Shown here one piece after another: positions 4,426 through 22,743 of a stretch of DNA of 43,369 nucleotides. Origin of the DNA: a virus. Taxonomy: Duplodnaviria > Caudoviricetes. A model generated the notes under the pieces. It had not been told where the DNA came from, made no database searches, and saw nothing but the letters and a program-made list of their open reading frames with translations. The stretch is from positions 1 to 43,369 of IMG/VR virus record IMGVR_UViG_3300037043_000007; one strand, written 5' to 3'. A program made the translations under genes and the position numbers. Position 1 is the first letter of the stretch; every line of letters starts with the position of its first letter.

Positions 4426-4539
4426 TTTTGTGCTCCTTTTTTAAATAAATGATATATATGTCCAACTATTCATTTAACACTATATATGTTGCTTAACTCA
4501 TTAAAATCGTGCTCAGAAAGTGCTGCTGCTGAGGAATTA

Positions 4540-5089: not shown

Positions 5090-5304
5090 GAGTGCATCTC
5101 CCCTACATTTTCATCAGGCTCAGCTAAGGTTAATTCTACATCTTCCATACTTATAGTCTTATCTTCTGTAAATAAAGCATAATCTATAAAGGCTTTTATT
5201 GCTGCTAATTCTGTTAATATAGCATCCTTATCCCCATTAGACAGAATCATCCCTTCTAAACGAGTTACTGATTTCTCTATTAGTTCTAATATATTAGTTT
5301 CCAT
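5086..5304 (-). CDS. hypothetical protein
   Basis: 72-aa ORF overlapping both neighbours. Confidence 0.55.
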   Translation of the reverse strand: METNILELIEKSVTRLEGMILSNGDKDAILTELAAIKAFIDYALFTEDKTISMEDVELTLAEPDENVGEMHS

Positions 5305-5677: not shown

Positions 5678-5688
5678 ACTTTCCTCCT

Positions 5689-6399: not shown

Positions 6400-6411
6400 A
6401 ATATTCCTCCT

Positions 6412-6690
6412 TTAATCGCATTTGGCACAAGTCCAAATTACCTCATCATTTATTACTATTCTGAATCTTTTATCTTTACATTTTGGACATTCGCACTTAT
6501 ATTTCTTAACTTCATAATCTCTCTTATCCCCTACGAGCGTCTTCTTAGCTTCTCGGCAGACCATCTTTAATTCATTCCCCTTATGTTCTGAATAATGTTC
6601 GTGCTTAGCGTGCTTCTCGTATGAAGACATATACTTAAACTCCATACCACACCAAGACTTTATCTTCGGAGCTTTTATTCCTCCACTCAT
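6412..6690 (-). CDS. Zn-finger hypothetical protein
   Basis: C2H2-like WCG...H..H plus CPKC and CAKC. Confidence 0.55.
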   Translation of the reverse strand: MSGGIKAPKIKSWCGMEFKYMSSYEKHAKHEHYSEHKGNELKMVCREAKKTLVGDKRDYEVKKYKCECPKCKDKRFRIVINDEVIWTCAKCD

Positions 6691-7862: not shown

Positions 7863-7884
7863 ATTCCTCCTATTTTATTTACTT

Positions 7885-7958
7885 TGGTCAGGGACGGAGG
7901 AATTGAACCTCCTCTTCTGGTATCCAAGACCAGCAGACTGCCGTAATCTTTGTCCCTG
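7885..7958 (-). tRNA. tRNA-Pro(TGG) with encoded CCA
   Basis: CAGGGAC/GTCCCTG acceptor, A73, CCA; CTGGT-CTTGGAT-ACCAG anticodon arm; GGAGG-TTCAATT-CCTCC T arm. Confidence 0.92.
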
Positions 7959-7959
7959 A

Positions 7960-8045
7960 TGGTGGGTGCTCTAGGTAATGCTCCTAGCGAGACCGAAGTC
8001 AACGATTTTACAGACCGTCTGCCCTCTTTAGACAAATACGCACCC
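7960..8045 (-). tRNA. tRNA-Tyr(GTA), non-canonical, with encoded CCA
   Basis: GGGTGC/GCACCC acceptor plus ACCA; ACGGT-CTGTAAA-ATCGT anticodon arm; long variable arm GAC-TTCG-GTC; CTAGG-AGCATTA-CCTAG T arm. Confidence 0.85.
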
Positions 8046-8112
8046 TTGTTAAAAAAATTGTAGAGAGAGGGAATTTGTGTTGTTGGTAACATTGTTCCAA
8101 AATGGAACGAAC

Positions 8113-8188
8113 TGGTGTGGGGGCAGTATTGGCTACCTGCGTCTTCCTTAGGGGTATCCCAAGGCTGTCTTAGTTCAAACGACCCCAC
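8113..8188 (-). ncRNA. 76-nt tRNA-like cloverleaf RNA ending in ACCA (tRNA mimic or pseudo-tRNA)
   Basis: GTGGGG/CCCCAC-A-CCA; GTTT/AGAC arm; CCTTGG-GATACCC-CTAAGG arm; GCAG-10 nt-CTGC arm. Confidence 0.65.
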
Positions 8189-8192
8189 AGGT

Positions 8193-8372
8193 CTACTTAT
8201 TATCTGTGAATGGTTTTCTCATAAGGATGACAAGGTCAGCAGTAGCTTGATGACAAGCCCAAGAAACTAGATGTGAACAAGGATGAGTGCATTCGTGATA
8301 CTTTTTGTGGTCGGTATCGTGGCATTCTCCACAAACAGGATTCGCATACTTAGATGGAACTGTGAACTGCAT
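8193..8372 (-). CDS. small Cys/His-rich protein (59 aa; not in the ORF track)
   Basis: GGAGGTG RBS, then MQFTVPSKYANPVCGECHDTDHKKYHECTHPCSH... Confidence 0.6.
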   Translation of the reverse strand: MQFTVPSKYANPVCGECHDTDHKKYHECTHPCSHLVSWACHQATADLVILMRKPFTDNK

Positions 8373-8603
8373 TTAAATCACCTCCCCATAGTTTACTTTC
8401 GTTCCGTAGTAGCAACAAATGTCCTTGAATTGACAATAGCTGTTAGGGGAACACTCTCGTTCGTGTCCTCTTTTGCAGTAACGCATAAAGTAATGGTGGA
8501 AATTATGATGGAACTCATAGTCCAGAATCATAATCCTGTTCTTACGATAGAGCTTCTTAGGAAAGAAAAAATGATGGTGGTCAGTCCTCCGTCTCCGTTT
8601 CAC
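8373..8603 (-). CDS. His/Cys-rich basic protein, possibly a minimal HNH-like or Zn protein
   Basis: GGAG RBS; DHHHFFFPK...EFHHNFHH...C..C..C..CC. Confidence 0.55.
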   Translation of the reverse strand: MKRRRRTDHHHFFFPKKLYRKNRIMILDYEFHHNFHHYFMRYCKRGHERECSPNSYCQFKDICCYYGTKVNYGEVI

Positions 8604-8928
8604 TCACATCTCCCCCTACTTCGTCTAGTGCTTCTCTCTCTGATAAACTCCCCAATTCAATCTCAAGCTGTAGGCTCTCAATAGCTTCTTGAATAGTTTG
8701 TAAGGCATCAGTAAGTCCACCAACTGGGAAATTAGTAGAAACTTGGCACTCTGAATCGTGCTGACAATTAGTATTGATTCTTGGAATTAACCCAAAAAGA
8801 ATTGTATTGTAAGCAATCATAGCTTCAGGATAAGTTACAGGATTCTTCTCCATCTGTTCTTGGATGTAGAGTAATGCCTGTGTAATCTTAATAAGCATAT
8901 CAAGGTCGTGTTCATATGCTTGGGTCAT
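8581..8928 (-). CDS. hypothetical protein
   Basis: GAGGTG RBS before ATG 8928; the ORF-track TTG start at 8961 lies inside an RNA stem. Confidence 0.6.
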   Translation of the reverse strand: MTQAYEHDLDMLIKITQALLYIQEQMEKNPVTYPEAMIAYNTILFGLIPRINTNCQHDSECQVSTNFPVGGLTDALQTIQEAIESLQLEIELGSLSEREALDEVGGDVSETETED

Positions 8929-8948
8929 CACTCTCACCTCTCTCTTGT

Positions 8949-9167
8949 ATATCGTAGGCAAATAATGTAGGAGAACTTTTAACCACCCAACTCATTGGCA
9001 TTGTTGTTTTAACCACCCCAAAATAAGTGTAGCCAAATCAATATTTCTTAGGGGTATTGGTTGGTGATGTTATGGTTAGCCTTTAGGACGCTTTAAGGTC
9101 ATCTTACGCCGTCAGCCGAGCCTGTATTGACCCACTTCGGCTCTCCTACAATAACTACCTACGATAT
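8949..9167 (-). ncRNA. stem-closed ncRNA module A
   Basis: ATATCGTAGGTAGTTATTGTAGGAGA pairs with TCTCCTACATTATTTGCCTACGATAT over 26 positions; internal hairpins; GGGTGGTTAAAA occurs twice. Confidence 0.7.
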
Positions 9168-9175
9168 TGTTATGT

Positions 9176-9302
9176 AGTAATAGGCAAATAATGAGCCACT
9201 ATCATCTTATGGAAGTCGGTATTGCTATCTTGGATTTACTTTACCGAGCTTATTTCTAATCAAGACCATATCAGATAGTGAACTCTCTAACTACCTATTA
9301 CT
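9176..9302 (-). ncRNA. stem-closed ncRNA module B with internal pseudoknot
   Basis: AGTAATAGGTAGTTAG...TTATTTGCCTATTACT, then CACTATC/GATAGTG and TATGG/CCATA; crossing stems TCTTG/CAAGA and TCGGTA/TACCGA. Confidence 0.7.
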
Positions 9303-9303
9303 T

Positions 9304-9409
9304 ATCAGACCTTCAGGCAGAAGGTAATTGTGTAGGGATGGTCGGTCTACGCAATTGTTCTGCCCAATAAATGTTTATGCAATAGTTACCTATTGCCTGA
9401 AAGCCTGAT
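9304..9409 (-). ncRNA. stem-closed ncRNA module C with two alternative folds
   Basis: ATCAGGCTTTCA/TGAAGGTCTGAT closing stem; GCAATAG-GTAA-CTATTGC hairpin. Confidence 0.6.
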
Positions 9410-9421
9410 TGTTGTAAATGT

Positions 9422-9477
9422 GCTTGGATTTCTCCAATGTAGGGGCTTCTAGAATAACCCCAACGCCAGAGCCAAGC
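9422..9477 (-). ncRNA. hairpin module D
   Basis: GCTTGG/CCAAGC, CTCT/GGAG and GGGGTT/AGCCCC stems. Confidence 0.45.
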
Positions 9478-9575
9478 TATTTATTCCTCCCAGTCTTTGG
9501 GATTATATTCTTCAAAATAACCTTTTGATTGTAGTATTAGTTCCATAGCTTTAAGTTGTGATTCAGTATGTATCT

Positions 9576-9851
9576 TCATTTCTTCATCTCTTTAAGTATG
9601 GCTTTTACCTCTGCACCAGTATATTCACCACCATCCCCAAACTCTGCCATAGCTTCATCTAATACTTGTTGGCGTTCTCCTTTTACAATTTCTTCTGCCC
9701 TACACATTGGACATAGTTGTCCCATCATAGATTCGCCCGAATACTTTGAATCACAATCTGAACATCTTAAACCATCTTTGCCACCAGAATATCCTTCTGA
9801 TTGATACCCATACATAGATTCCCTTATATTCATAATTCTTTTATCTTTCAT
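9576..9851 (-). CDS. Zn-ribbon hypothetical protein
   Basis: CSDC...CPMC; AGGAG RBS. Confidence 0.6.
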   Translation of the reverse strand: MKDKRIMNIRESMYGYQSEGYSGGKDGLRCSDCDSKYSGESMMGQLCPMCRAEEIVKGERQQVLDEAMAEFGDGGEYTGAEVKAILKEMKK

Positions 9852-9972
9852 CTATTTCTCCTTTTATAAATTCCATCAATGAACTTAACTTCTTTCCAAT
9901 AGGAAAATGGGTTTTCCACCAAGATTAGCTCTCCATTTGTAACATTATGTAACTTACCTTCTATCCAAATAA

Positions 9973-10194
9973 TCATACTTTATTCCTTATCCAATACTCT
10001 AATGTTGCCCATATCTTAATCCCTACCCAGAATAGAATAGCCCCTAACCATTGAACCAACTGCCAAGCAAGTAATAGTGTAAGTAGTATCAATGGAACAC
10101 CTACTAAAAAGAAACATAAGATACCTGCTAATAAGTCTCTGTCATCTGTTGTATGACCTGAATAAGTTTCTACTTTTGGTGGTTTTATAAACAT
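9973..10194 (-). CDS. small membrane protein
   Basis: Long hydrophobic segment; GGAGG upstream. Confidence 0.6.
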   Translation of the reverse strand: MFIKPPKVETYSGHTTDDRDLLAGILCFFLVGVPLILLTLLLAWQLVQWLGAILFWVGIKIWATLEYWIRNKV

Positions 10195-10403
10195 TATCTT
10201 ATTTCCTCCAATACTATATCTTTAGCCTTAACTCTGTATACCTTTTTTACTTCATATACAGTTAAATCTTCTGGTGAAGAGTTATGGAATATAGTGTCTT
10301 GTATCTCGTAATCTAATTCTTCTCTTGAACCACACTCTATTTGGTCTGCTGTAGAGCCATCTACCAATAGATACTTAACACCAAAATTTCTAATTTTTTT
10401 CAT
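10194..10403 (-). CDS. hypothetical protein
   Basis: AAGGAGG RBS before ATG 10403. Confidence 0.6.
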   Translation of the reverse strand: MKKIRNFGVKYLLVDGSTADQIECGSREELDYEIQDTIFHNSSPEDLTVYEVKKVYRVKAKDIVLEEIR

Positions 10404-10573
10404 TATTCCTCCTTTAATATATGCCCACACTTAGGACAATAAATCATTTTTAGTTTGTTGTTACCCATCCAGTCATACGCCATCACCTCTTGATACCTGT
10501 GTCCTTCTTTTGAACAAACATTCTCAAACACCTCTTCTATAATCGTTGATTCATAAATTACTCGTTTAGCCAT
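10403..10573 (-). CDS. small Zn-ribbon protein (56 aa; not in the ORF track)
   Basis: GGAGGAG RBS; MAKRVIYEST...CSKEGH...YCPKCGHILKEE. Confidence 0.55.
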   Translation of the reverse strand: MAKRVIYESTIIEEVFENVCSKEGHRYQEVMAYDWMGNNKLKMIYCPKCGHILKEE

Positions 10574-10836
10574 TTTATTATCTCCTCCTCTTTTAATGCT
10601 TTAAATTCTTTTATTTCTTGGGTGGTGATATAAGATTCACTAATTTCACTAATAGGTTGTATTTTTCTCTCTCCGTCAAAACCTTTGGCATTTGATTCTC
10701 CTTGTTTTAAATCAAGAAAAGGCACTTGAAAAAGGAAATCTTCGGTCATTCCTATCTCTAGTGCCTCTACTCTACTTGAAAGGTCTAATATAATATTTTT
10801 AAGCTTCTGTATAAGCTCTAACTCTTCGCTATTCAT
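10558..10836 (-). CDS. hypothetical protein
   Basis: ORF with AGGGG RBS before ATG 10836. Confidence 0.55.
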   Translation of the reverse strand: MNSEELELIQKLKNIILDLSSRVEALEIGMTEDFLFQVPFLDLKQGESNAKGFDGERKIQPISEISESYITTQEIKEFKALKEEEIIKWLNE

Positions 10837-10951
10837 TTCAACCCCTTGAAACATTTATCACAACAATCATATTCGTGCTGTTTCACTATTCTTGTTGATA
10901 TTGGTTTTTGTTTACCACACAAATCACAGATTGCCATAGCTTCCCCCAACT

Positions 10952-11004
10952 ATTTAGTTCTAGCGATTGGGTAGGCAACGCCTACCTTATCGTCAGAGTT
11001 AAAT
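10952..11004. other. long imperfect hairpin (25 positions) downstream of the transglycosylase gene
   Basis: ATTTAGTTCT-AGCGAT-TG-GGTAGGC-AAC-GCCTACC-TT-ATCGTC-AGAGTTAAAT. Confidence 0.55.
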
Positions 11005-11009
11005 CTGAA

Positions 11010-11525
11010 CTATATTGGTAAGCCAAGTTTATTGGCTGTATTCGTCCAAGGCTGCCAACCTCTAGCTTTCCACTTTCTATAAGCAATAGCTATATTGGTC
11101 TCAGCATCATAGACTACCCCGTCTAAGCAAGCAATTTGGAAAAGTCCATAAGAGCCTATGCAGATAACGTTACCATTTCTATCTCGGTGACGGTCTGTTG
11201 TATTGGCTGAATATTGATTACCACCACTTTCAAGACGCATAACGTCTAATGCAGTGTTTACTGGCCAATCATATTTAGCTACTAATGGTCTCCATTGCTC
11301 CACTCCTGGAGTTGACTTGGCTATATTTTGTTTAGGTGCAGGTGGCTTAGCTTCAACAACTGGTGCTGGTTGCTCTACCACTATTTCTTCTTTTGGTTTC
11401 TCTTCTATTTTTACTGCAGCGACAGTTTCAACTGGTGCTGTTTTGGGTAAGAAGCAAGTTCCGAGTAACAAGGGAACCACTAAGAGCTTCATTACTCTTG
11501 TAGAAATCTTCAGATAGACCTCCAT
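11010..11525 (-). CDS. secreted or membrane-anchored lytic transglycosylase (SLT/lysozyme-like)
   Basis: N-terminal hydrophobic segment, Pro/Glu linker, ESGGN, SYGLFQI and GWQPW motifs. Confidence 0.85.
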   Translation of the reverse strand: MEVYLKISTRVMKLLVVPLLLGTCFLPKTAPVETVAAVKIEEKPKEEIVVEQPAPVVEAKPPAPKQNIAKSTPGVEQWRPLVAKYDWPVNTALDVMRLESGGNQYSANTTDRHRDRNGNVICIGSYGLFQIACLDGVVYDAETNIAIAYRKWKARGWQPWTNTANKLGLPI

Positions 11526-11600
11526 TTTTAATTATTGTTTTAAACATCCGACTGATAGTGCCTTGATTATATCGTTGAGGCTCTAAGAGTTCGGCTAGTT

Positions 11601-11837
11601 TTAAGGTTCGCGAAATATTCTTTCCGCATAATCTATTAAGTTTTCGCCTGGCTTTATTTTATTCCTTTCGTCTTTTGATGTCAACTTATAATTGTATTTT
11701 GACCACCACTTCCATAGTCTTCCAGTCTGTTCGCCAGTTAGATTTCTTGTCTTTATCCACTCTCCTATTTCAAAGAAATCCATATTAAGTAATTGTTCTT
11801 TTGTTTCTTGTTTCATTAAATATTTTTTCCCCTGCAT
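11601..11837 (-). CDS. hypothetical protein
   Basis: 78-aa ORF. Confidence 0.5.
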   Translation of the reverse strand: MQGKKYLMKQETKEQLLNMDFFEIGEWIKTRNLTGEQTGRLWKWWSKYNYKLTSKDERNKIKPGENLIDYAERIFREP

Positions 11838-11865
11838 ATATAGCGGAATTAGTTATCATATATTT

Positions 11866-12050
11866 AGTAGAACAACATAGTCTTGAATGAAACGCCCCTG
11901 CTTACCTAAGTATTAGTCTATCGCCATTCATTCTATTTCATTGTATTGGTCAGAGATGTTTAAGCTTTCGCTATGCAGGTTTTTTCTCCTCCTCAAATGC
12001 TGAAGTGATTTTTGTTTCTGAAGAATCACCTAAAACTCCCTATGTCTACA
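11866..12050 (-). ncRNA. candidate structured ncRNA or 5' leader
   Basis: No long minus-strand ORF; lies downstream of a promoter; GTAGA-CATAG/CTATG-TCTAC closing stem, GAATGAA/TTCATTC, GGTGATT/AATCACT and AGC-GAAA-GCT. Confidence 0.4.
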
Positions 12051-12060
12051 TTGTAAGTTA

Positions 12061-12088
12061 ATTATACATCAAAAAGGTATGTCGTCAA
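12061..12088 (-). promoter_or_regulatory. sigma-70-type promoter
   Basis: TTGACG-16-TATAAT. Confidence 0.55.
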
Positions 12089-12368
12089 CGTCCACATCAT
12101 CAACTGCATCTGTTTGTTTTTTAGGATAGGTTTTTAAACCTTTCTCTCCCATAGTAGCCTTATCATAATCTGACACTAGGTCTAATCTCTCGGCACTCTC
12201 TAAATCCATAACTAATCTGTAGTCTGGAGAGTTTTCTGTTTTCTTTTCGTCTTGTTTAAACATTGCAGCACTTGTGTCGTTGTTAAACTTAATGGAGATA
12301 TATTTTAATCCCCCTTGAGTTTCCCTTAACCAGCCTGCTCCAATTTTAACTGATGGTTGTTTATCCAT
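12069..12368 (-). CDS. putative single-stranded DNA-binding protein (DUF736-like)
   Basis: KIGAGW...KYISIKF...NSPDYRL and acidic DDVDVDDIPF tail. Confidence 0.75.
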   Translation of the reverse strand: MDKQPSVKIGAGWLRETQGGLKYISIKFNNDTSAAMFKQDEKKTENSPDYRLVMDLESAERLDLVSDYDKATMGEKGLKTYPKKQTDAVDDVDVDDIPF

Positions 12369-12534
12369 TCTTCCTCCTTAGAAAAGCCTTGATGGCCAAT
12401 CTATTAAACTTTCTTACTTCCTTTTGTGTTAACTCTTTACAATGCTGTTTGCCTATTTGGTTATTCATTATTGAATATCCTAAAGGTTTTCCAATTGCAT
12501 CAATTAACACGTGAGCAAATCTTTTACTCTTCAT
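12361..12534 (-). CDS. small basic protein (57 aa; not in the ORF track)
   Basis: MKSKRFAHVLIDAIGKP... fills the gap between the annealing protein and SSB genes. Confidence 0.45.
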   Translation of the reverse strand: MKSKRFAHVLIDAIGKPLGYSIMNNQIGKQHCKELTQKEVRKFNRLAIKAFLRRKNG

Positions 12535-12537
12535 TTC

Positions 12538-12912
12538 TTAGATAAAGTCTTCCTGATATTTCTCTTTATTCTGTGCTATTGTTATCTCGTCTTTACTAGC
12601 TATACTATCTATTACACCGATGCCCATAAATGCTAAAGCTCTACCGACTGCACTTGTTTCGCAATTCTCAACTGCACTAGTTTTGTTGATATATCCCTCT
12701 CCCCTAATTTCTTCTGCTATGCCAGTAAAGAATACACCATCAGTTGGGGATACTGTTGCTTTAATTATTATGGATTTTTCGTCATTGTGTATAATCTTGG
12801 TAGTAATTGAACCAGACTTATATGTGTCGTTAAAATATTTAACTCTGTCTGCAACTTGCACATATAGTTTACCCTTAAAGTCTATTGCTTTCTCTTTTAA
12901 ATCTTTTCCCAT
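12538..12912 (-). CDS. putative single-strand annealing protein (Rad52/Sak-like)
   Basis: YVQVADRV...FTGIAEE...INKTSAVENCETSAVGRALA; adjacent to SSB. Confidence 0.7.
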   Translation of the reverse strand: MGKDLKEKAIDFKGKLYVQVADRVKYFNDTYKSGSITTKIIHNDEKSIIIKATVSPTDGVFFTGIAEEIRGEGYINKTSAVENCETSAVGRALAFMGIGVIDSIASKDEITIAQNKEKYQEDFI

Positions 12913-13046
12913 TTTACACCTTCTTCTTTTTGTTAGCCTTTAGTTTTAATGCTACATAATCTATCAATGCATAAACTACTACTACGGTTAGTCCGCCTAA
13001 AGCGAAGCTTCCTGTGTCGATTGTCAAAACCATTTTACCCTCCTAT

Positions 13047-13096
13047 ACTTTAATTATATCACACTTTAATTATATACCTTACACCGACTAAGTCAA
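13047..13096 (-). promoter_or_regulatory. sigma-70-type promoter with duplicated -10 region
   Basis: TTGACT-16-TATAAT; ACTTTAATTATAT direct repeat at 13047-13059 and 13063-13075. Confidence 0.6.
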
Positions 13097-13199
13097 CTTA
13101 ATTTGGCCTCTAATTCTGCCACCCTATAGGCAGTGTCACTATCTAATTTCTGCTTTATTGACAGATAATCTGCCCTGGCCTGTATTGATTTTCTCCATC

Positions 13200-13712
13200 T
13201 CATATTGTTATACCATTCTTTCTTAAAACCTGCAGTTTGCATCTTATAGAGTTTATACTTCTTCCTAACTTACTAGAGATATATTCTGCCGTTTTGCTTT
13301 TATACATTTTCTTTAAATAGTTCACCTCCCCATTAGACCACTCATTAGTTCTTGGCGTTCTCGCCTTTTTAACTTTGATTATCCCTATCCTTTTTATGTA
13401 TCTGTGGTCGTATGAATATACCAGGTTTTTTTCGTACTCCATAAACTCTTCTTTATCTAGTGTTTGTTTGCATAAGCTTATTATTCTATCCCTTATGGCC
13501 TCTTCTGATATGTCAAATAAGTCAGATGCCGTTGCTATTAAGTTTGAACCATTCTTGGCAAACCAGACATTGTCACATAGAATTTGATATTTGTATGAAG
13601 TCTTCACACTCCCTACTGTGTCAGGGTTTTCAGAAGTATCAAATGCATTGTTTAGTATCGCCCTTAATATCTCTATGTAAGGGTCTTTTCCACTTAATTG
13701 CTCAACTCCCAT
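13200..13712 (-). CDS. protein with C-terminal Myb/SANT-like HTH
   Basis: WSNGEVNYLKKMY...YISSKLGRSINSIRCKL; GGAGG RBS. Confidence 0.65.
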   Translation of the reverse strand: MGVEQLSGKDPYIEILRAILNNAFDTSENPDTVGSVKTSYKYQILCDNVWFAKNGSNLIATASDLFDISEEAIRDRIISLCKQTLDKEEFMEYEKNLVYSYDHRYIKRIGIIKVKKARTPRTNEWSNGEVNYLKKMYKSKTAEYISSKLGRSINSIRCKLQVLRKNGITI

Positions 13713-13725
13713 AAAAACCTCCTTG

Positions 13726-14115
13726 TTAGGCTTTTACTTTATTTCTTCTCCACTCTCGTATTCTTTTCAGAACCTTTTCTCTATTCTTCTGGTAGTAATC
13801 GTTACATCTTTTATTGTTCCAAGCACGACCTTCTGGCGTTTTTGTATACTCAGAAACCTTTTCATTATGACTTTTGATAGCACACTTTACTGAACAAAAC
13901 TTTCTTTGGCCGAATTTTAAAGGCCTATCACACTGCTTACATTTTAGGTTTTTCTCTAAGAATTCCTTCTTTGCTTTTTCTTGTTTTTCTCTGGTGTACT
14001 TTTTAGCTAAGTCTTTAGCTTTTTTCTGGTTATCCCAATACCATTTTCTACTTTGCTCGTTCTTTTTTTCTTTGTTCTTTCTATACCACTCTTTAAAGTA
14101 TTCATTTCTATTCAT
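13726..14115 (-). CDS. basic Zn-finger DNA-binding protein
   Basis: CKQC...KFCSVKC; YxKNKEK-like repeats. Confidence 0.6.
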   Translation of the reverse strand: MNRNEYFKEWYRKNKEKKNEQSRKWYWDNQKKAKDLAKKYTREKQEKAKKEFLEKNLKCKQCDRPLKFGQRKFCSVKCAIKSHNEKVSEYTKTPEGRAWNNKRCNDYYQKNREKVLKRIREWRRNKVKA

Positions 14116-14329
14116 TTATCATCTCCAACTCTGACATAGGAACTGCATAGCACTCTATCGTACCATTTGTCTCTTTAGGGTATTTTCTTATAACTTCGCC
14201 ACTAACCTTAAAAACCTTTCCTTTAAGATATTTAGACTTAGTAAACACTATCGTATTTGTGTCTCCAACTTTATATGTCGCAATTAATACTTTCCTATCC
14301 TTGTATCTTGGTTGCCATATTTCTATCAT
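14108..14329 (-). CDS. hypothetical protein
   Basis: AAGGGG RBS; MIEIWQPRYKDRKVLIA. Confidence 0.6.
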   Translation of the reverse strand: MIEIWQPRYKDRKVLIATYKVGDTNTIVFTKSKYLKGKVFKVSGEVIRKYPKETNGTIECYAVPMSELEMINE

Positions 14330-14500
14330 TTTTACCCCTTTCAAAAGCTATACCATCTTCATAGCCCTTTAAATAAAGTTTTAAGTCTTTCATTTGTTGT
14401 ATCTCTTCCTTACTTCTTACTTTCGTGTGTGTTAGTTTCATTTATACCTCCAATTAACCACATAACAAAATCGTCTTTGTTCTTAAATCTTTCTTCCCAT

Positions 14501-14698
14501 TTAATAGGTTGTTTTACTTTCATTTTCTTCCTCCTTATTAAATATCTTGTCATTAAATAAACTAATAAGTGAGTATTCCCTAATCAACTCATCTAGCGTG
14601 ATAGTAGTCGACTCAACTCTTCTACCTTTCCTTCTTCTTAAGGTGAGGACTACATCTTTTGGATAAGTTACTCGCGTTTCCCCATTTTTAATTTGCAT
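14501..14698 (-). CDS. hypothetical early protein
   Basis: AAGGAGG RBS. Confidence 0.55.
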   Translation of the reverse strand: MQIKNGETRVTYPKDVVLTLRRRKGRRVESTTITLDELIREYSLISLFNDKIFNKEEENESKTTY

Positions 14699-14773
14699 CT
14701 TCTTCCTCCTTTTCTAATTTTTTAACATCTTCTTCACTCATAAAGTCTATTGCATAAGGTGTATGTTCCCAAT

Positions 14774-14962
14774 TCATTTTGTGTCTCCTATTCTTATTCT
14801 TAATTCTCCCACAATATATGAGTATAACTCGTCAGCGTCTATTGTAAGGTTTTCTGCTTCCTCCTCATACTGTTCTACATAATCTAAAAAGCTTTCTAAT
14901 ACTTGTTGTTTGGCTTGTCGAATACTAGCTCTAATATCTTCATACATATCATATTCACTCAT
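14774..14962 (-). CDS. hypothetical early protein
   Basis: AAGGAG RBS; acidic. Confidence 0.6.
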   Translation of the reverse strand: MSEYDMYEDIRASIRQAKQQVLESFLDYVEQYEEEAENLTIDADELYSYIVGELRIRIGDTK

Positions 14963-14964
14963 AA

Positions 14965-15249
14965 TTATTCTCCTTTCCTTTGTTGGTCGGCATAATAGTC
15001 GCCCAAGTCTTTAAATTTATTTACTCTTTCAATTATCTCTTTATCCTCTAAGCCCTCAAACTCGTCTGGTTCAAAAAACCCCTCCTTAACACCATAATTG
15101 ATATATCTCCAAGCCTCTTTCAATTCTGAGCCAAACTGTTCAGCTTCTATTCTAGCCAAATCGTGTTGATTTTCTCTTTGAGTTTGTTCCTCGTCTTGTC
15201 TGATGTTTTGTTCAAGCTCGAAAGCTCTTTCTTTGTTTCCTTGATACAT
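14965..15249 (-). CDS. hypothetical early protein
   Basis: AAGGAG RBS. Confidence 0.6.
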   Translation of the reverse strand: MYQGNKERAFELEQNIRQDEEQTQRENQHDLARIEAEQFGSELKEAWRYINYGVKEGFFEPDEFEGLEDKEIIERVNKFKDLGDYYADQQRKGE

Positions 15250-15274
15250 AATTATCTCCTTAATCTCTTAATTA

Positions 15275-15463
15275 CTATGTTCTATACTTTTCTCTTAATC
15301 TCTCGCTTTCGTTAAAGTCCAATGCCTCAACTTTGTTATTGTCGTGGTCTTTCCATAACCTATCTGTATCGTAATTAGTCATACACTTTTGACACAATTG
15401 TATATCTGTTTCTATATCCATTTCACCCAAACAATCTAAACAAAGGCTATTTTGCTCGTTCAT
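15275..15463 (-). CDS. small Zn-binding early protein
   Basis: CLDC...CQKC; GGAGG RBS. Confidence 0.6.
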   Translation of the reverse strand: MNEQNSLCLDCLGEMDIETDIQLCQKCMTNYDTDRLWKDHDNNKVEALDFNESERLREKYRT

Positions 15464-15464
15464 T

Positions 15465-15707
15465 TTATACCTCCTTTAATTTATTTATTATTCTTTGATT
15501 ATCTTTTGGGCAAATTGTTTCATACTCTAAATAGTTTTCATTAGGGTATAGTATTACTGCTTTGTCCTCATTAGAATAACCCCACATAGTTTCTTTGCTC
15601 AATGTTCCAAACCCATTTCCCTCCTCGTCTTGACTTACAAACACCTCATAATCTCCAAATATGTCCTCTTGGCTCTTTAATTCTTTAATTAGTTCTGATA
15701 TTTTCAT
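15465..15707 (-). CDS. hypothetical early protein
   Basis: MKISELIKELK...GD.EV...QDEEGNGF pattern; AAGGAG RBS. Confidence 0.6.
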   Translation of the reverse strand: MKISELIKELKSQEDIFGDYEVFVSQDEEGNGFGTLSKETMWGYSNEDKAVILYPNENYLEYETICPKDNQRIINKLKEV

Positions 15708-15723
15708 ATTATTCTCCTTTCTT

Positions 15724-15921
15724 TTATATTATCCCATTTTCTTCAAATTCTTCTCTAATACCAAATTCATTTCCTAATTCCTCAAAATACTCATTCCACT
15801 CTAACAATTCTTTAATGCTTAAATTTCTTTCACTAGCCCATTGTTGCCACTCAATAGCCTCTTGCTTTGCCTCTTCTTTTGTTTTAGCCCTTGCCAAAAT
15901 GTTTTGTATTATAGGTCTCAT
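15724..15921 (-). CDS. hypothetical early protein
   Basis: 65 aa ending GIREEFEENGII. Confidence 0.6.
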   Translation of the reverse strand: MRPIIQNILARAKTKEEAKQEAIEWQQWASERNLSIKELLEWNEYFEELGNEFGIREEFEENGII

Positions 15922-16236
15922 TTTTCCCTTTCTTTTTACTTTCTTTTATAAATCTCACTCTATATTGTGTAAGCTTGTGCAAATATAAAGATAATCAATA
16001 TAAACACACCGACTAAACACATTTTTATTATTTCTTCTGCTCTTTCTTTTTCGTTCATCTTAGCTCCTTTTAGTTATACAATTACCATTTTCATTTCTAT
16101 ATTCATTACCACTTTCGTCATAATAGGTATTTGTTTCCTCATTTAGCACTAAATTATGCTCACTTATCTCTTTTTCGTTCATAGTCTTCACCTTTCTTTT
16201 ATTAACTCATTTTAATTGTTAACACAATTCAATAAA

Positions 16237-16324
16237 CACAAGGACAAAAGGCAGTGTTCGCTGTAAGCGTGGCAAGTCTTTTAATCTCGTTGCCGTTGCC
16301 GAGAACCTTTTGACACTTTTTGTG
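16237..16324 (-). ncRNA. stem-closed H-type pseudoknot RNA module
   Basis: CAAAAGG/CCTTTTG closes TCTCG-GCAAC-GGCAA-CGAGA-TTAAAAGAC-TTGCC and CGCT-TAC-AGCG. Confidence 0.55.
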
Positions 16325-16686
16325 GTATCGCCCACAATATAGAGGACAAGTTTAATTTATTTTGTAAGTGTTGGTAAGTTAATTTCTATCGCACCAACTA
16401 CTTCACCAAACTGAGTTACTACTTCATAGTATTTAGTTGTTTCTTCTTGTAGCCCGTTATAATCTATTTCATTTACTCCAACTATTCCTATTTCATATCC
16501 CCAATTCCAACTTGGTGCTGAATAAAACCCAGTTCTAAAAATGTTAGGTTGTTTATTTCCAAAAACTTCTTTCGCAAGTTTCTTTCTTTCGTCACTTAAA
16601 TACCAATTATTTAAGTCTTTATATTTTATAGTATTCATTTTTTTCCTTCTTTCCTTGTGTTTGCCCTCTATATTTTAGGCAATACC
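16324..16686 (-). repeat. 26-bp inverted repeat enclosing ORF 16357..16638
   Basis: Arms 16324-16349 and 16661-16686; on the mRNA strand 22 Watson-Crick, 3 G-U and 1 A.G. Confidence 0.85.
16357..16638 (-). CDS. hypothetical early protein inside a stem-closed cassette
   Basis: 93-aa ORF; AAGGA RBS just inside the 5' arm. Confidence 0.7.
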   Translation of the reverse strand: MNTIKYKDLNNWYLSDERKKLAKEVFGNKQPNIFRTGFYSAPSWNWGYEIGIVGVNEIDYNGLQEETTKYYEVVTQFGEVVGAIEINLPTLTK

Positions 16687-16689
16687 CTT

Positions 16690-16965
16690 GTTATATCCTA
16701 CAAGCTAAACATAAGTTTAGCCGTTTTTTTAATTGTTGCTTTTTACTTGTTGTTTTAGCCATTTGTAGCCTCTCCAACGCATATCTCCACCAAAAACCCT
16801 TAATACTCTATACTTTTCCCCCTCTATAAAACCACCATTTTTCATTAAATAGTTGTTGAACAAGTCCACCATATTATTAAAGAATAATACTTCACCATTT
16901 AATGTTTTTACTTGAATGCCCATTTTTCTACCTCATTTAATTATATTTAACTTGTAGAATATAAC
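16690..16965 (-). repeat. 25-bp inverted repeat enclosing ORF 16729..16923
   Basis: GTTATATTCTACAAGTTAAATATAA / TTATGTTTAGCTTGTAGGATATAAC: 22 Watson-Crick and 3 U-G, no mismatch on the mRNA strand. Confidence 0.85.
16729..16923 (-). CDS. hypothetical early protein inside a stem-closed cassette
   Basis: 64-aa ORF; GAGGT RBS. Confidence 0.7.
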   Translation of the reverse strand: MGIQVKTLNGEVLFFNNMVDLFNNYLMKNGGFIEGEKYRVLRVFGGDMRWRGYKWLKQQVKSNN

Positions 16966-16979
16966 TTGTTTTGCTTAAC

Positions 16980-17108
16980 GTCTTTTAATGTATCATTGTT
17001 GATAGCAACATAACCTAAATATGTTTTGGGTTCTTATGTTTTGCAACGTTCCTATTTTACGCTATCCCATTAATCGTTTTATGCTCACGTTTTTGAGCCT
17101 TAAAAGAC
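16980..17108. ncRNA. stem-closed multibranch non-coding module
   Basis: GTCTTTTAA/TTAAAAGAC closing stem; GATAGC/GCTATC, AACATAA/TTATGTT and GCTCA/TGAGC inner stems. Confidence 0.45.
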
Positions 17109-17117
17109 TATAAAATT

Positions 17118-17442
17118 ATAAGTACATCATCAAGCTATTAAGCTTGATTAATCAACACGTATAAACTTTACACGTTGCGGATTATTAAGATAAACACGTT
17201 TAAAGAATTGCATATTATTTACCCTTTTTTATTATTGTGATTATCGGTGCATAACCATAGATATTATCGGTATATTTATATACTTTATATAAGCCGTTAT
17301 TTAAAACACTCTTTAAAAGCCTATTTTTAACGCCTTTAATTGTTTTAAGCCTATATATTGCCGAATTATCACAACCACAACCACCATTCGTTAGATAATA
17401 CATTTTAATACCTCATATTAATTAACTTGATGATATACTTAT
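17118..17442 (-). repeat. 20-bp (extendable) inverted repeat enclosing ORF 17215..17403
   Basis: ATAAGTATATCATCAAGTTA / TAGCTTGATGATGTACTTAT: 18 Watson-Crick and 2 U-G on the mRNA strand. Confidence 0.85.
17215..17403 (-). CDS. hypothetical early protein inside a stem-closed cassette
   Basis: 62-aa ORF; GAGGT RBS; GGCGCD motif. Confidence 0.65.
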   Translation of the reverse strand: MYYLTNGGCGCDNSAIYRLKTIKGVKNRLLKSVLNNGLYKVYKYTDNIYGYAPIITIIKKGK

Positions 17443-17635
17443 TATTTATTTTTTAAGGTTCATTGTATTATATCTTTTGATGCTATCTTATATTTATACA
17501 ATGGTTAAAGTTCACTCTCCTGAGAATAAAAGCCTTAAAAGTGCTTGAGCTTAATACAATTTAAAAGTATATGTTATTAAATTCGTAAAGCTTTAAAGCG
17601 GTTAAGGTATCTATTCAATTTTTAAGGATAACTAA

Positions 17636-17664
17636 ATAATATCACAGATTAAAAACATTGTCAA
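17636..17664 (-). promoter_or_regulatory. leftward early sigma-70 promoter
   Basis: TTGACA-17-TATTAT with extended -10 TG. Confidence 0.75.
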
Positions 17665-17714
17665 TAGTTCAGAATAGCAAGTTAATAAAGCCAAAACGAG
17701 ATAATTAAAAAATG

Positions 17715-17852
17715 GCGGTAAAGATTAAAAGCCTTCAATTGCTACCTTAAAAGTATAAATACTAAATAGACTATAAAGCATTGATACATATTAACAGGGT
17801 AAAACTCGCGGTAAAAGATTAAAAGCCTTGAATTGCTATCTTAAACTATAAG
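17715..17852 (+). repeat. about 44-bp imperfect direct repeat, two copies
   Basis: GCGGTAAA(A)GATTAAAAGCCTT(C/G)AATTGCTA(C/T)CTTAAAA(G/C)TATAA at 17715-17758 and 17808-17852. Confidence 0.85.
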
Positions 17853-18145
17853 AAGCAATGTATAAACAAAAGAGTAGATACAATGTAGTTATGTTTAAAT
17901 GTTGCGTTGTGGTAGTCCCACACTATACAATATAAAGCTAAAGTATCCGATATTATCATCTATATCATAGCTCAATAGTGCCGATATACTCTTCTATCGG
18001 GTAAGAATAACAAGTCAATTGAGCCAAGAGAGAGGGTTGATATTAATATCTATCGGGTAATGGGGTAGTGGGGGTATTATATGAAGGGAGAGGGGAGGGG
18101 AGCTGTATGGGTCTACCCATTCTAACCATATTCCAGGGTAACGAG

Positions 18146-18184
18146 TTGACATTATCCGTAACAAGGATTATAATAGCCGTAACA
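18146..18184 (+). promoter_or_regulatory. consensus sigma-70 promoter with operator-like repeats
   Basis: TTGACA-17-TATAAT; CCGTAACA at 18156-18163 and 18177-18184. Confidence 0.85.
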
Positions 18185-18201
18185 TAAAGAGGAGAATTAG
18201 T

Positions 18202-18534
18202 ATGAAATGCATTAAGTGTAACAAAGAGTTTAAAGGGCGAGCTGATGCTAAGTTCTGTAGTGCAAACTGTAGGGTTATGGCCGCAAGAGAGAAAGAAGAC
18301 GTAAAGACTATGTCTGCAGAAGTGAAGCTTCCTAAGACTATGTCTGCACAGGAGCTGTATGATGGGATAGATTCATACCCTAAGGACAAGTGGGTGGATA
18401 GTCCAGAGCACTTAGAGTTGTTAAGGCGTTTAGAAGTTCTTTCTTTAGAAGAATTGAGAGCAGGGGGGTATAGTATACCTTCTAGACGATTAAATGAAGT
18501 AGCGATAGCTAAAGCAGCAAAGGCGAGAGCCTAA
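18202..18534 (+). CDS. Zn-finger protein, candidate regulator
   Basis: CIKC...AKFCSANCR; AGAGGAG RBS; sole gene between a promoter and a terminator. Confidence 0.7.
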   Translation: MKCIKCNKEFKGRADAKFCSANCRVMAAREKEDVKTMSAEVKLPKTMSAQELYDGIDSYPKDKWVDSPEHLELLRRLEVLSLEELRAGGYSIPSRRLNEVAIAKAAKARA

Positions 18535-18571
18535 CTAAATTGCGAGGTTAAAAAATAATAAACATAACAAA

Positions 18572-18604
18572 GGGGTGCGAATGTAAGGTTTTGCACTCTT
18601 TTTT
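18572..18604 (+). terminator. Rho-independent terminator overlapping late promoter 1
   Basis: GGGGTGCGAA-TGTAAGGT-TTTGCACTCT followed by TTTTT. Confidence 0.65.
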
Positions 18605-18623
18605 GATATAATTAAGGTAGAAG
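18583..18623 (+). promoter_or_regulatory. phage late promoter motif, copy 1
   Basis: GTAAGGTTTTG-N13-TATAAT-N4-GTAGAAG. Confidence 0.8.
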
Positions 18624-18625
18624 AT

Positions 18626-18847
18626 ATGAAAGAATACAAAAACACCATATTTGAACTGTCTGGGAAAGAGGGGGCAGACTTTAAGAATTTAAAGGTCTGT
18701 GGATTTAGTATTGATGGGAAGGAGCAGTATGGTTTTCACATCATACATCATCCTAAGAATCATTCACAAACATACTATGTTAGGGTAGTTGGCTTTGTAG
18801 ATAAACACAATACAGACAGAAATTGGGGATATACCAAGAAAGGATAA
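18626..18847 (+). CDS. hypothetical protein
   Basis: 73-aa ORF immediately after the promoter motif. Confidence 0.55.
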   Translation: MKEYKNTIFELSGKEGADFKNLKVCGFSIDGKEQYGFHIIHHPKNHSQTYYVRVVGFVDKHNTDRNWGYTKKG

Positions 18848-18849
18848 TT

Positions 18850-19386
18850 ATGTATTGGAAACCTGATTTAAGATGTGTTGTTTGTAAGAAAATCATAGAG
18901 GGAGACTCTAAACTCCAGCGAAGATTAAATGAATGTTCACGCTTTGTTAAGGGGGGTGAGCCCTGGTCTCGTATAGCGAAAGATATTGGCTGTACAAACA
19001 AGTCCCTAGGAAACCACCTAACTAAACATCAAAACCCTGACCAAGTAGCAGGAGCCATAATTAAGGGTGAGATTATACAAGGTGATGTGGTTAAACAGAG
19101 GATGAGAGCACAGGATTACACAGATAAAATACTAGAAGCTGCATTAGATGAAGATGGAAACCTAAAACAGCACATAATAGACAAGATGACACCAACAGCT
19201 GTTACACAGGCAACTAAACAGAAATTTGAATACGAGAAATGGGATGATAAGAAGTCAGCATTTGAAATGATTATGTATGCTATGGTAGCTGATTCTAGGA
19301 AGCCTGAATTAGAGAAGGAACAAAATGACAGACTTGAGTCAGGAACAACAGAGCCTACTAAAGCTGAAATTTCAGAAGGGGTATAA
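18850..19386 (+). CDS. putative terminase small subunit
   Basis: Directly upstream of the large subunit; CVVC and HTH-like WSRIAKDIGCTNKSLGNHLTKH; AAGGA RBS before ATG 18850. Confidence 0.65.
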   Translation: MYWKPDLRCVVCKKIIEGDSKLQRRLNECSRFVKGGEPWSRIAKDIGCTNKSLGNHLTKHQNPDQVAGAIIKGEIIQGDVVKQRMRAQDYTDKILEAALDEDGNLKQHIIDKMTPTAVTQATKQKFEYEKWDDKKSAFEMIMYAMVADSRKPELEKEQNDRLESGTTEPTKAEISEGV

Positions 19387-20860
19387 CGATATACCTTATT
19401 TTGCTAAAGAGTTTCTGGGCATTACGATGCACCCAGGGCAAATTGAGTTCCTAAAAAATTCCAATGAAAAGATAAATGTTTTAATACCAGGTAACAGGTG
19501 GGGTAAGACAGTCTCAGTAGCGATTAAACATATCCACCACAATTTTTATAAGTTTGGGATAAAGGTAGATGGGCCAGAAGAACTCCTTAAAGCAAGATAC
19601 GAGACCTGCAATCTATCCCCAGATTCCAAACAAGCAGAAGAAGTATTTAAAGTAGTAGTATCTATTTTAACTTCTGCATTTGCAATACGTTCAGAAGACG
19701 GGACGACCAAACCTAATAAGTGTTTATTAGAAGGATTTATCCTAACGGCGACAGAACAACCCACTATGCAAGTAGGGTTTAAGAATAACTCGCTTCTACT
19801 TATTAGACCGACAGAACACGATAAGGCTAAGTCAATAGCGGCTAAGCAGTTCGCTTATATCTCTTATGACGAAGGTTGTAAATCTAACCATTTAGAATAT
19901 GAGGTTATGTCTACTATTTTACCAAGGCTCGCAGACCTTGGTGGCACTCTAGACATACTCTCAACACCAGACGCTGAGTCACCTTCACTCATCTATTATA
20001 GGGAACTATTTTGGAGAGGTGGCGGAGATAACCACCCTAAACAGGAAGGCTATTACTCACAAGAAGGCTCAGCATTAGAAAACCCATACCTACCCAAGGA
20101 CTATGAGTATCAAATGAAACTACAATATGGTAAAGACCCATTATTGTTACAGGTAGTTTATGGTAAGTTCGTTATCACTGGCTCTAAAACCTTTGACGAT
20201 GAAGATATTTTAAACGCAGTTGATGAGAGTATGGAAGATTTTATACAGTTTAAGCCAGGGCATAAGTACACTATGGGGGTAGATACTGCTGCTGGTGGAG
20301 ACTTTTTTGTAATATGCGTCATAGACGTATCAACTAACCCGCTTGAAATAGTTAGATGGTCACGGAAAAAAGGTGCCGAACAACCTCCTACTCTCCATTT
20401 GCAGGACATAGTAGACATATTCGACCACTACAATCAAGAGAGCCAAGTTGAATTTATAATGGATTCCTCTAACGAGGCTGGTCTTTTATGGCAAGATATG
20501 CTTCCAGATAGGATTAAGAACCTTGCAACCTTCTATGGGTTCGGTAATAGAAGAAGAATAGAGGGGCTCCCTACTGACCCTAGGTTTAATCCGATGATAA
20601 ATACAAAAGAACAAATAATACTTTCAATAAAAAAAGCATTGTCAGATGGTAAGGGCGAACGAAAACCATATGGCAAAATTAGATACCCAAGAATTAAAGA
20701 ACTAATTAACGAGTTATCTATCTACAGAAAACGAGAACGAGGTAAGCGTGATGATAAATTCACGACTGACTGCGTAATCGGCTTCGGTTTAGCTCTCTAT
20801 CAGGCAACTGATGGTCAGCCACAGAACACCGAAATGGTTGCTGTAGGAGTAAACTGGTAA
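19325..20860 (+). CDS. terminase large subunit
   Basis: HPGQ, GNRWGKT (Walker A), YISYDEG (Walker B), STP, MGVDTA (RNase H nuclease) and DCVIGFGLA motifs. Confidence 0.92.
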   Translation: MTDLSQEQQSLLKLKFQKGYNDIPYFAKEFLGITMHPGQIEFLKNSNEKINVLIPGNRWGKTVSVAIKHIHHNFYKFGIKVDGPEELLKARYETCNLSPDSKQAEEVFKVVVSILTSAFAIRSEDGTTKPNKCLLEGFILTATEQPTMQVGFKNNSLLLIRPTEHDKAKSIAAKQFAYISYDEGCKSNHLEYEVMSTILPRLADLGGTLDILSTPDAESPSLIYYRELFWRGGGDNHPKQEGYYSQEGSALENPYLPKDYEYQMKLQYGKDPLLLQVVYGKFVITGSKTFDDEDILNAVDESMEDFIQFKPGHKYTMGVDTAAGGDFFVICVIDVSTNPLEIVRWSRKKGAEQPPTLHLQDIVDIFDHYNQESQVEFIMDSSNEAGLLWQDMLPDRIKNLATFYGFGNRRRIEGLPTDPRFNPMINTKEQIILSIKKALSDGKGERKPYGKIRYPRIKELINELSIYRKRERGKRDDKFTTDCVIGFGLALYQATDGQPQNTEMVAVGVNW

Positions 20861-20868
20861 GGACTAAA

Positions 20869-22743
20869 ATGGCAATACTAGATGTATTCAAAAAGAAAAA
20901 AGAAGTTAAAGTAAAAGAAGAAAAAGACGCTAAAATTATCCACGTTATAGAGGGTGAGATTGCTAAAGGTAAACAAGATGTAGTTGAACGAAATGACTAC
21001 ATTACATATAGACACGAGATAGTCTACGGCGATAAGATGATGGAAGAAGCGAACCTTCCTAAAGATTTCGATATGACAGACTTCAACTTCGCACCGAGAA
21101 TCCTTGATATACATACATCTCAGTTAATGGGTAAGGGTTTCTTTATTGGAACTAATTATGACAAGATTGACACATCTATTATAGAAGACCAAAGAATGGA
21201 TAAGACTTCTGGGCAAATGCTAGAAAACCCAGAGAAGAAAGAAGCATTCCTAACAAACGAGGCTAGGAAAGCTAAGGCACAGGCAGTTAAGAAGTTGGTA
21301 GATGCTATCATTAAAGACAATGGTGGCTACTCACTATTTAAAGATGGCTCTAGGATAGGCTCAGCTTACGGAACTACAGTTATGAAATACTGGGTTGAAA
21401 AAGAGAATGGACAAGTAAAGCCTAAAATCAAACTAATAGAGAAACTAAAAAACTATTATGCTATATGGAAACAGGATGACTTCAGAGAAAGAAGTGCTGA
21501 TGTTTTTAGATATAAAATGGAACTTGATGAGGCTAATAGACGCTACGCAGAGTTCTTAGGGAAAGATGAATCATTTTCCGCTGATGTAATAACTGAAGAC
21601 AACACAGAAGACGAGACTATACCTATGTGTACTATCACAGACTACACTGGAGTACACCCACTAGGGCTTAAAAAGGATGGCGAACCGATTATAGTTAATA
21701 TACTTTATATCGGGAACAAAGTTATTCAGTCAATAAATATGGATGGAAGTGAGCCAGCTAAAGTGCCTGGTTATATTTTAGTTAGAAATAAAATAGAATT
21801 AGGTGAAGCTTGGGGACTATCTGACCTATCTGCTCAATTCATATCACAAAACATAGGCTACATTGAGAGAATGTCAGAAGAAACAACTAAAGTGCAGAAA
21901 TTCCACTTTCCTATCGGTCTTGCTATTGGTTATAACCAAGCAACAATCCCCAAAAAGAATAAAAGAGAAACTACAATTATACCAGCTAACCCAGGGCAAG
22001 ATATTAAATTCGTTCAGCCACCTGTTGTATCATACGAATATCCCAAGATTATGGATGAGCTTAAAGAAGCTATGGCTAAGTCATCTGGTGTTGGTAGAAT
22101 TATGTTTGAGAACCCACAGATTAACTATGACTCAGCTGAAGCATTAATGATGGGTATGAAATCCATACTTGATGTTGTTGAAGAGAAACAAGACAGATGG
22201 ACACCAGAACTTATTAAAATGTTCTCTGATTTAATTTATAAGATGAGACAGCTAGATAGAGCTGTTCGTGAAGCAATACCAGAAGATATAGAAATATATA
22301 TAGAGTGGCCATCAGTCCTCCGAAAAGAAAGTGCCGCTTATAGAACTATGCTTCTAAATGACTTACAGCGTGGAGCTATGTCACTTGAAACCTACCTAGA
22401 GAAAACTGGAGTTCAAGACCCATCTGAAGAATTAGACAGGATTAGAACTGAAGCTACAGATGATGTCATTGGCCCAATAGTATTCCCACAAGCCTACCAA
22501 ATGATGAAAGCACAAGATATGCAAGACAAACAAGAAGATATGATGGAAGCACAGCAAGCTCAAATGGGTATGCAACCAGAAATGGAACAGGGTGGTGAAG
22601 GATTGCCTGGAGTAGGCTCACAGCCTAACCCAACATTAACTCCTGGACAAAACCAAGAAAACGCACAACCATTACCTCAGCGTGGGCAGATGCCTACAGC
22701 GACACCTGAGGGAGCAATAGCACAAAAGAACTTTGTAGGTTAA
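20869..22743 (+). CDS. portal protein
   Basis: Follows the terminase; 624 aa; WGLSDL, IEWPSVL and Q/M/P-rich C-terminus typical of portals. Confidence 0.8.
   Translation: MAILDVFKKKKEVKVKEEKDAKIIHVIEGEIAKGKQDVVERNDYITYRHEIVYGDKMMEEANLPKDFDMTDFNFAPRILDIHTSQLMGKGFFIGTNYDKIDTSIIEDQRMDKTSGQMLENPEKKEAFLTNEARKAKAQAVKKLVDAIIKDNGGYSLFKDGSRIGSAYGTTVMKYWVEKENGQVKPKIKLIEKLKNYYAIWKQDDFRERSADVFRYKMELDEANRRYAEFLGKDESFSADVITEDNTEDETIPMCTITDYTGVHPLGLKKDGEPIIVNILYIGNKVIQSINMDGSEPAKVPGYILVRNKIELGEAWGLSDLSAQFISQNIGYIERMSEETTKVQKFHFPIGLAIGYNQATIPKKNKRETTIIPANPGQDIKFVQPPVVSYEYPKIMDELKEAMAKSSGVGRIMFENPQINYDSAEALMMGMKSILDVVEEKQDRWTPELIKMFSDLIYKMRQLDRAVREAIPEDIEIYIEWPSVLRKESAAYRTMLLNDLQRGAMSLETYLEKTGVQDPSEELDRIRTEATDDVIGPIVFPQAYQMMKAQDMQDKQEDMMEAQQAQMGMQPEMEQGGEGLPGVGSQPNPTLTPGQNQENAQPLPQRGQMPTATPEGAIAQKNFVG

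Follow-up and report, generated by a model that had tools for sequence, protein, structure and literature searches.

The window, i.e., the whole analyzed stretch of 43,369 nucleotides, is a 43.4-kb record of an uncultured, groundwater-type phage with a completeness rating of 100%, and its contents include an SU10-type capsid protein, a portal, a terminase-like gene, RtcB, and a tRNA-Pro. The structural genes are located on the plus strand with a promoter at 18146, and a cluster of small genes on the minus strand is preceded by a predicted sigma-70-type promoter at 17664-17636 (TTGACA-17-TATTAT with an extended -10 TG; consensus match of 11/12). From its position and promoter type, we infer that the minus-strand cluster consists of early genes. 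The AT-rich gap between the divergent promoters harbors a 32-nt direct repeat (17720-17751 and 17814-17845, 94% identical), which may be an origin or serve in packaging.

The first 1.4 kb of the leftward transcript, in a region with a GC content of 28 to 31%, is occupied by an array of minus-strand modules, three of which carry a gene. The cargo of module 1 is a 62-aa orphan ORF (17215-17403) with no homologue but itself, and that of module 2 is a 64-aa ORF (16729-16923); both have the Shine-Dalgarno (SD) sequence GAGGT, and neither has a match in Pfam or PHROG. Module 3 contains the gene of a 93-aa protein (16357-16638) from a conserved family of unknown function, with 48 homologues besides itself, no named family in Pfam, PHROG, and Atlas searches, and no member found in genome bins. 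Genes and enclosing arms lie where the first-pass annotation had placed them, with helices at 17442-17423/17137-17118 for module 1 (20 bp with two G-U pairs, extending to 17447/17113 and thus to arms of 17423-17447 and 17113-17137), at 16965-16941/16714-16690 for module 2 (25 bp, three G-U pairs), and at 16686-16661/16349-16324 for module 3 (26 bp, three G-U pairs and one A.G). In each case, the two flanks of the unit are predicted to form a long duplex of at least about 20 bp, which is what characterizes an RNase III stalk. As had been claimed, eight of the nine non-Watson-Crick positions are G-U pairs on the coding strand, an SD-like sequence stands between the 5' arm and the ATG of every module, and successive modules are separated by approximately 9, 14, 3, and 0 nt, i.e., by the proposed 0 to 14 nt. 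In modules 1, 2, and 3, the distance from the 5' arm to the start codon is 19, 17, and 22 nt and that from the stop codon to the 3' arm 77, 14, and 7 nt. The notion that the arm pairs are unrelated in sequence did not hold for modules 1 and 2, whose arms have CAAGTTA / TAGCTTG in common, with 8/15 pairs identical in register; the 5' arm of module 2 is also related to an arm of the relative L006. Self-duplexes of the three gene modules amount to -24.8 to -36.6 kcal/mol and cross-duplexes to no better than -12.2 kcal/mol, and each 5' arm is predicted to pair well with its own 3' arm only.

A genome-wide helix scan with loops of up to 1,500 nt assigned scores of 50.5, 49.5, and 45.0 to modules 3, 2, and 1, which ranked first, second, and fourth on the minus (coding) strand. 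Shuffling of the AT-rich sequence gave nothing comparable, since the best helix in 300 dinucleotide shuffles of 16200-17630 scored at most 37.5 and none reached 40. The flank-pairing z values of the three cargo genes were -6.5, -5.6, and -2.8 (ranks 1, 2, and 5 of 66 genes tested). Flank pairing of a further ORF (10558-10854, z -4.5) was rejected as a module, because it involves the coding sequence of its neighbors. In RNA ensembles of the 1.4-kb region, the arms of modules 1 (20-bp core), 2, and 3 pair with probabilities of 0.96, 0.99, and 0.94 on the coding strand versus 0.78, 0.03, and 0.06 on the other strand. The earlier suggestion of selection on a single-stranded fold of the mRNA is strengthened by the leaders of the phages compared, in which the ratio of G-U to A.C was 55:24 in 25 helices (p 6e-4) versus 93:99 in 64 background helices; all were picked by a strand-symmetric score, and a few of the 25 leader helices are probably due to chance or over-extended.

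The interspersed non-coding modules that had been described as stem closed (16237-16324 and 16980-17108) are both present, but their closures are weaker than the gene stems. Module A (16980-17108, minus strand) has a folded interior and a closure of about 9 bp (-9.2 kcal/mol, p 0.68), and module B (16234-16324, minus strand) is an interrupted helix with a self-closure of -13.6 kcal/mol. The 3' strand of module B (16251-16234) is complementary over 18 bp to the ribosome-binding region of module 3 (16662-16645), including the SD sequence; this pairing amounts to -22.9 kcal/mol, versus -13.6 kcal/mol for the self-closure, and is excluded as long as stem 3 is intact (p ~2e-5). An antisense action of module B on the ribosome-binding site of module 3 after cutting is a speculative prediction from these folding energies. 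The inner part of the helix 16645-16662/16234-16251 matches an arm bracketing the homologous gene in L006, and the helix may therefore be an older module boundary.

A second array, outside the coordinates of the first-pass annotation, accounts for ranks 3 and 5 on the minus strand. It spans 8949-9409 (minus strand) and comprises three tiled non-coding stem modules (9409-9304, 9302-9176, and 9167-8949) with related arms (z -6.1 in 20 shuffles), folded loops of 58 to 163 nt, four compensatory pairs between two of the modules, and a boxA-like site 12 nt ahead of the first arm. These modules are candidate phage small RNAs. The non-coding modules of both arrays had no match among the Rfam covariance models, which in the whole genome recovered the tRNA and one chance-level match elsewhere. 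In two sparse groundwater metatranscriptomes, which cover small shares of the region only and have no contig on 1-3200, eight short contigs matching at at least 99% and one partial contig were placed on 3000-22000; joints were absent from them and none was informative over 16237-17447, and one 151-nt RNA contig (8989-9139) falls within a loop of the second array.

Terminase searches identified 13 distinct loci, seven of which include the early leader in their sequence, the remaining six being too short. All seven have a stem of 22 to 34 bp in the leader after a sigma-70 promoter. ORFs are enclosed in L008, L010, and L129, with head-to-tail tiling in the first two: in L008, a stem around one ORF is separated by 3 nt from a second stem with a non-coding loop of 80 nt, and L010 has a run of three modules, two with an ORF and one non-coding. 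The stem around the ORF of L129 measures 34 bp, and L001, L002, L014, and L131 have non-coding loops only. Loci found via the early genes add gene modules in L006, L184, and L203 and tiled non-coding stems in L004. The non-coding loops enclosed by stems are 40 to 160 nt long, and the enclosed ORFs of the relatives have no evident mutual likeness when compared by eye. That arms should covary while the cargo is exchanged had been proposed as a check, and both were found. Compensatory changes affect 6/23 pairs between the non-coding stems of L008 and L010 and 4/24 pairs between module 2 of the window and L006, with four to seven such pairs per homologous stem pair in a comparison of few sequences registered by hand. 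Judged by the sequences compared, the stems are real and selected at the RNA level.

The 93-aa cargo lacks an enclosing helix in four of its five other loci (L001, L004, L005, and L007), and in L006 the flanks of the gene do not pair significantly (flank test z -1.4). The stem is hence not needed for this gene, given its homologues without an enclosing helix. Most of the 80 loci with a homologue of the neighboring ORF 15724 also have no such helices. Arms like those of module 2 were sought in viral contigs by a DNA pattern scan, and all 113 resulting loci were judged to be chance matches (best helix, 31). The 13 loci of capsid-protein relatives end before the early regions, the small-terminase alignment was too diverged to serve as a search query, and the terminase search found no cultured phage relative. 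Three observations on individual relatives may be added. L006 has a strand-symmetric 22-bp inverted repeat (4391-4412/4656-4677) without G-U bias upstream of its early promoter, possibly a DNA-level site. The enclosed ORF of L129 (655-1030, minus strand), located on a contig binned with Absconditabacterales, contains in-frame TGA codons, which would fit a reassignment of TGA in this group. The perfect inverted repeat of 44 to 47 bp at the contig end of L131 (1-150) may be an assembly artifact.

Three of the five terminase matches in genome bins are from Saccharibacteria, Levybacteria, or Absconditabacterales bins, and on account of these bins and the likeness of a leader motif described below, the phage hosts are likely Patescibacteria. 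RNase III is encoded in 78/81 and NusB in 75/81 Patescibacteria genomes; in many of the genomes G006 to G093, nusB and the RNase III gene share a contig and strand and lie no more than about 1 kb apart. Leader-trailer stalks of the 16S rRNA gene, with 18 to 39 bp (mean, 27), were found in 20 of 30 Patescibacteria loci, and the 23 phage stems (mean, 23) are similar in length and build; host stalks often have a mismatch 5 to 11 bp away from their outer end, in a build resembling that of the phage stems. Most host stalks start with a motif resembling the boxA consensus of Escherichia coli and Bacillus subtilis (published in PMC13753749, from an excerpt of that paper). A matrix built from 18 Patescibacteria 16S leader sites gave a summed best score of 107 for 13 phage leaders, whose limits and start sites were fixed after the stems had been seen, whereas downstream windows gave 4.5 ± 13 and the reverse strand 19. 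Individually, 9 of the 13 leaders have a boxA-like site at ≤0.05, and those of L002, L005, L008, and L010 have no significant one. The motif occurs upstream of or within the first stalk, with the best site 108 to 121 nt into the leader in five terminase-family phages, and since the best sites of all 13 leaders lack a -10 partner, they are more than mere -35 elements. In the window, the best leader match (17500-17511, minus strand; score, 10.0) exceeds all same-length downstream windows and is flanked by weaker copies at 17617-17628 and 17448-17459. The genome has 14 other sites scoring at least 10, so that the site at 17511 is unexceptional in this genome alone and the support for boxA comes from the set of 13 phages rather than from 17500-17511.

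Overall, we consider it probable that the early operon starts with an arrangement resembling that of a host rRNA operon, with stalks that likely serve as host RNase III sites for the release of separate units. This interpretation is drawn from sequence features, namely, the helices and their mRNA-strand bias, partner specificity, and covariation, the recurrence with unrelated cargo, and the enrichment of boxA-like sites, and cleavage of the transcript into monocistronic units would explain them best. Host RNA polymerase would start at 17636-17664, NusB/S10 would load at boxA and favor read-through and long-range pairing, and each stalk would close once its trailer is transcribed. RNase III, for which no gene was found in the phage genome, would then cut near the middle of the stalks and release messages of roughly 300, 250, and 340 nt, whose ends would be guarded by the remaining clamp of 10 to 13 bp in modules 2 and 3 or by a local 3' hairpin in module 1. 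Since the arms are private, copies of the scaffold of stem and ribosome-binding site could take up new cargo without pairing across modules. A precedent comes from B. subtilis, where RNase III cuts mRNA duplexes of 10 to 36 bp with up to 505 nt between the sites (passages of PMC11780869).

The idea that the products are end paired was only partly upheld in simulations of a central cut, with a clamp of at least 0.7 predicted for 7 of 12 coding modules and of less than 0.4 for the other five, the loss being mostly in favor of a local 3' hairpin. Such a hairpin of -9 to -14 kcal/mol lies directly past the stop codon in 7/12 coding modules and can capture the inner 3' arm; it reaches p < 0.05 in 6/12 modules, and 11 of the 12 5' arms have no equivalent. 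In module 1, the hairpin at 17129-17148 (minus strand; -10.0 kcal/mol, p 0.015) is able to sequester the inner half of the 3' arm, and in module 2, a hairpin at 16703-16722 (minus strand; -9.5 kcal/mol, p 0.015), which is terminator-like on the plus strand, covers the inner half of the 3' arm.

The main rival explanation, to which we assign a low but appreciable probability, is that the helices form in the mRNA and stay uncut, i.e., that they are structural clamps, whose role would be to insulate genes, to stop exonucleases, to keep stop and start codons near each other, or to hold RNase III without cleavage. It fits the pairing, strand-bias, and covariation results equally well. The full proximal/distal box (pb+db) motif of E. 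coli RNase III sites (rule taken from passages of PMC1540722) was found in 0/23 phage stems (null, 0.7), although the rule also misses the host stalks, with 1/20 recovered; a symmetric pb site is present in 8/23 phage stems (null, 3.6; p 0.017, uncorrected, for one of nine spacings, with spacing 6 alike). According to the portions of the sources consulted, cleavage-resistant RNase III binding sites exist (PMC1540722), and the leader-trailer helix of E. coli matters even without RNase III (PMC10250234), which means that a stalk may function without cleavage. Unit release is nevertheless the simplest account of the head-to-tail tiling, stems also surround non-coding loops of 40 to 160 nt, where ribosome recycling would be meaningless, and both the resemblance to host 16S stalks and the presence of RNase III in nearly all sampled Patescibacteria argue for cutting.

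Far less credible is the proposal that another nuclease cuts the stems and that the phage RtcB ligates the units into circular RNAs. The RtcB gene is intact (6687-7862, minus strand; Pfam E 7e-113) and the stems bring both ends together, but RtcB was found in none of 10 related records, three of them at least 90% complete, and it is missing from the complete record L010 with its three tiled modules including genes. This absence makes RtcB circularization unlikely. The gene is located 8.5 kb from the modules and adjoins the tRNA-Pro (7885-7958), a position that presumably fits tRNA repair, and it was judged to be outside the module system. Moreover, RtcB does not ligate the 5'-P/3'-OH ends that RNase III produces. 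Archaeal pre-rRNA, which undergoes bulge-helix-bulge processing with RtcB circularization, shares with the phage array a long-range stem around the unit and an RtcB in the genome, but the phage differs by its bacterial promoter and host and by the stem-bearing relatives in which RtcB was not found; an archaeal splicing endonuclease is not expected, because the promoter is bacterial.

Marginally less probable still is that the arms are single-stranded DNA hairpins or inverted-repeat ends for the excision or exchange of gene cassettes. The cargo varies between relatives, a given cargo has a stem in some loci and none in others, and with DNA parameters, modules 1 and 3 can form (pair probabilities of 0.79 and 0.75). 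Module 2, however, drops to 0.19 and is unstable as DNA, which speaks against the single-stranded DNA alternative of the first-pass annotation, as do the lack of a recombinase or transposase among the 65 ORFs in Pfam searches, the bias toward the mRNA strand irrespective of its orientation in the genome, and the start of the arrays right past the promoter and boxA-like motif. As the arms differ between modules, they do not represent a shared recombinase site. Chance pairing, conceivable at such a low GC content, is refuted by the shuffles and by the recurrence and covariation of the stems in relatives, and its remaining probability is negligible.

Returning to the release of units by host RNase III as the favored reading, its ingredients are known one by one, i.e., rRNA stalks with boxA, long-range RNase III sites in mRNA, and the processing of T7 early RNA. 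The RNase III sites of T7 are local hairpins between genes, whereas the phage helices of this study are made from both flanks of a gene. In T7, host RNase III splits the phage early transcript and single cuts stabilize it (as cited in the available part of PMC5389636); the cutting proposed here is inferred. Bacterial rrn leader-trailer stalks with boxA and Nus factors (mechanism from parts of PMC10250234 and PMC6614801) resemble the array in that complementary flanks loop out a whole unit, but the phage cargo consists of small protein genes and small RNAs, arranged as three to five short modules with gaps of 0 to 14 nt, private arms, and variable cargo, and its cutting and Nus binding are predictions. 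In the excerpted text of PMC11780869, the B. subtilis priA, yqeU, atpA, and asnB mRNAs form intramolecular duplexes of 10 to 36 bp across spans of up to 505 nt that are cut with a 2-nt stagger, and these sites are scattered in host mRNAs without described serial brackets around whole genes. A search of open-licence PMC and bioRxiv texts, with subscription journals largely outside its scope, found no description of tiled gene-enclosing stalks in phage transcripts.

If this interpretation is true, phages would use the host rRNA transcription and processing pathway to obtain individually stabilized messages from one early transcript, and the range of RNase III stalks would include serial mRNA cassettes in addition to rRNA. 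The brackets would mark first-expressed accessory genes and unannotated small RNAs, which are good candidates for host takeover or antidefense in Patescibacteria, whose phages have barely been studied, and the design could be borrowed for polycistronic constructs that yield separately tunable messages. A bolder version, which we put forward tentatively and hold to be possible yet distinctly short of probable, is that phages of Patescibacteria pass off their first transcript as pre-rRNA. In this general plug-in cassette for accessory genes, boxA would recruit a Nus complex that chaperones the private stalks, RNase III would excise swappable, stabilized mini-messages and small RNAs, and module B would act in trans on the ribosome-binding site of its neighbor.

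Two observations concern other genes of the window. Glycosyltransferase, LicD, and cytidylyltransferase genes (Pfam) form a cluster within the structural genes (31034-35214) and suggest virion glycosylation. The last late gene (2885-3175, plus strand) lies between the arms of a helix of 13 to 15 bp (2865-2879/3183-3197) and is preceded by a hairpin.
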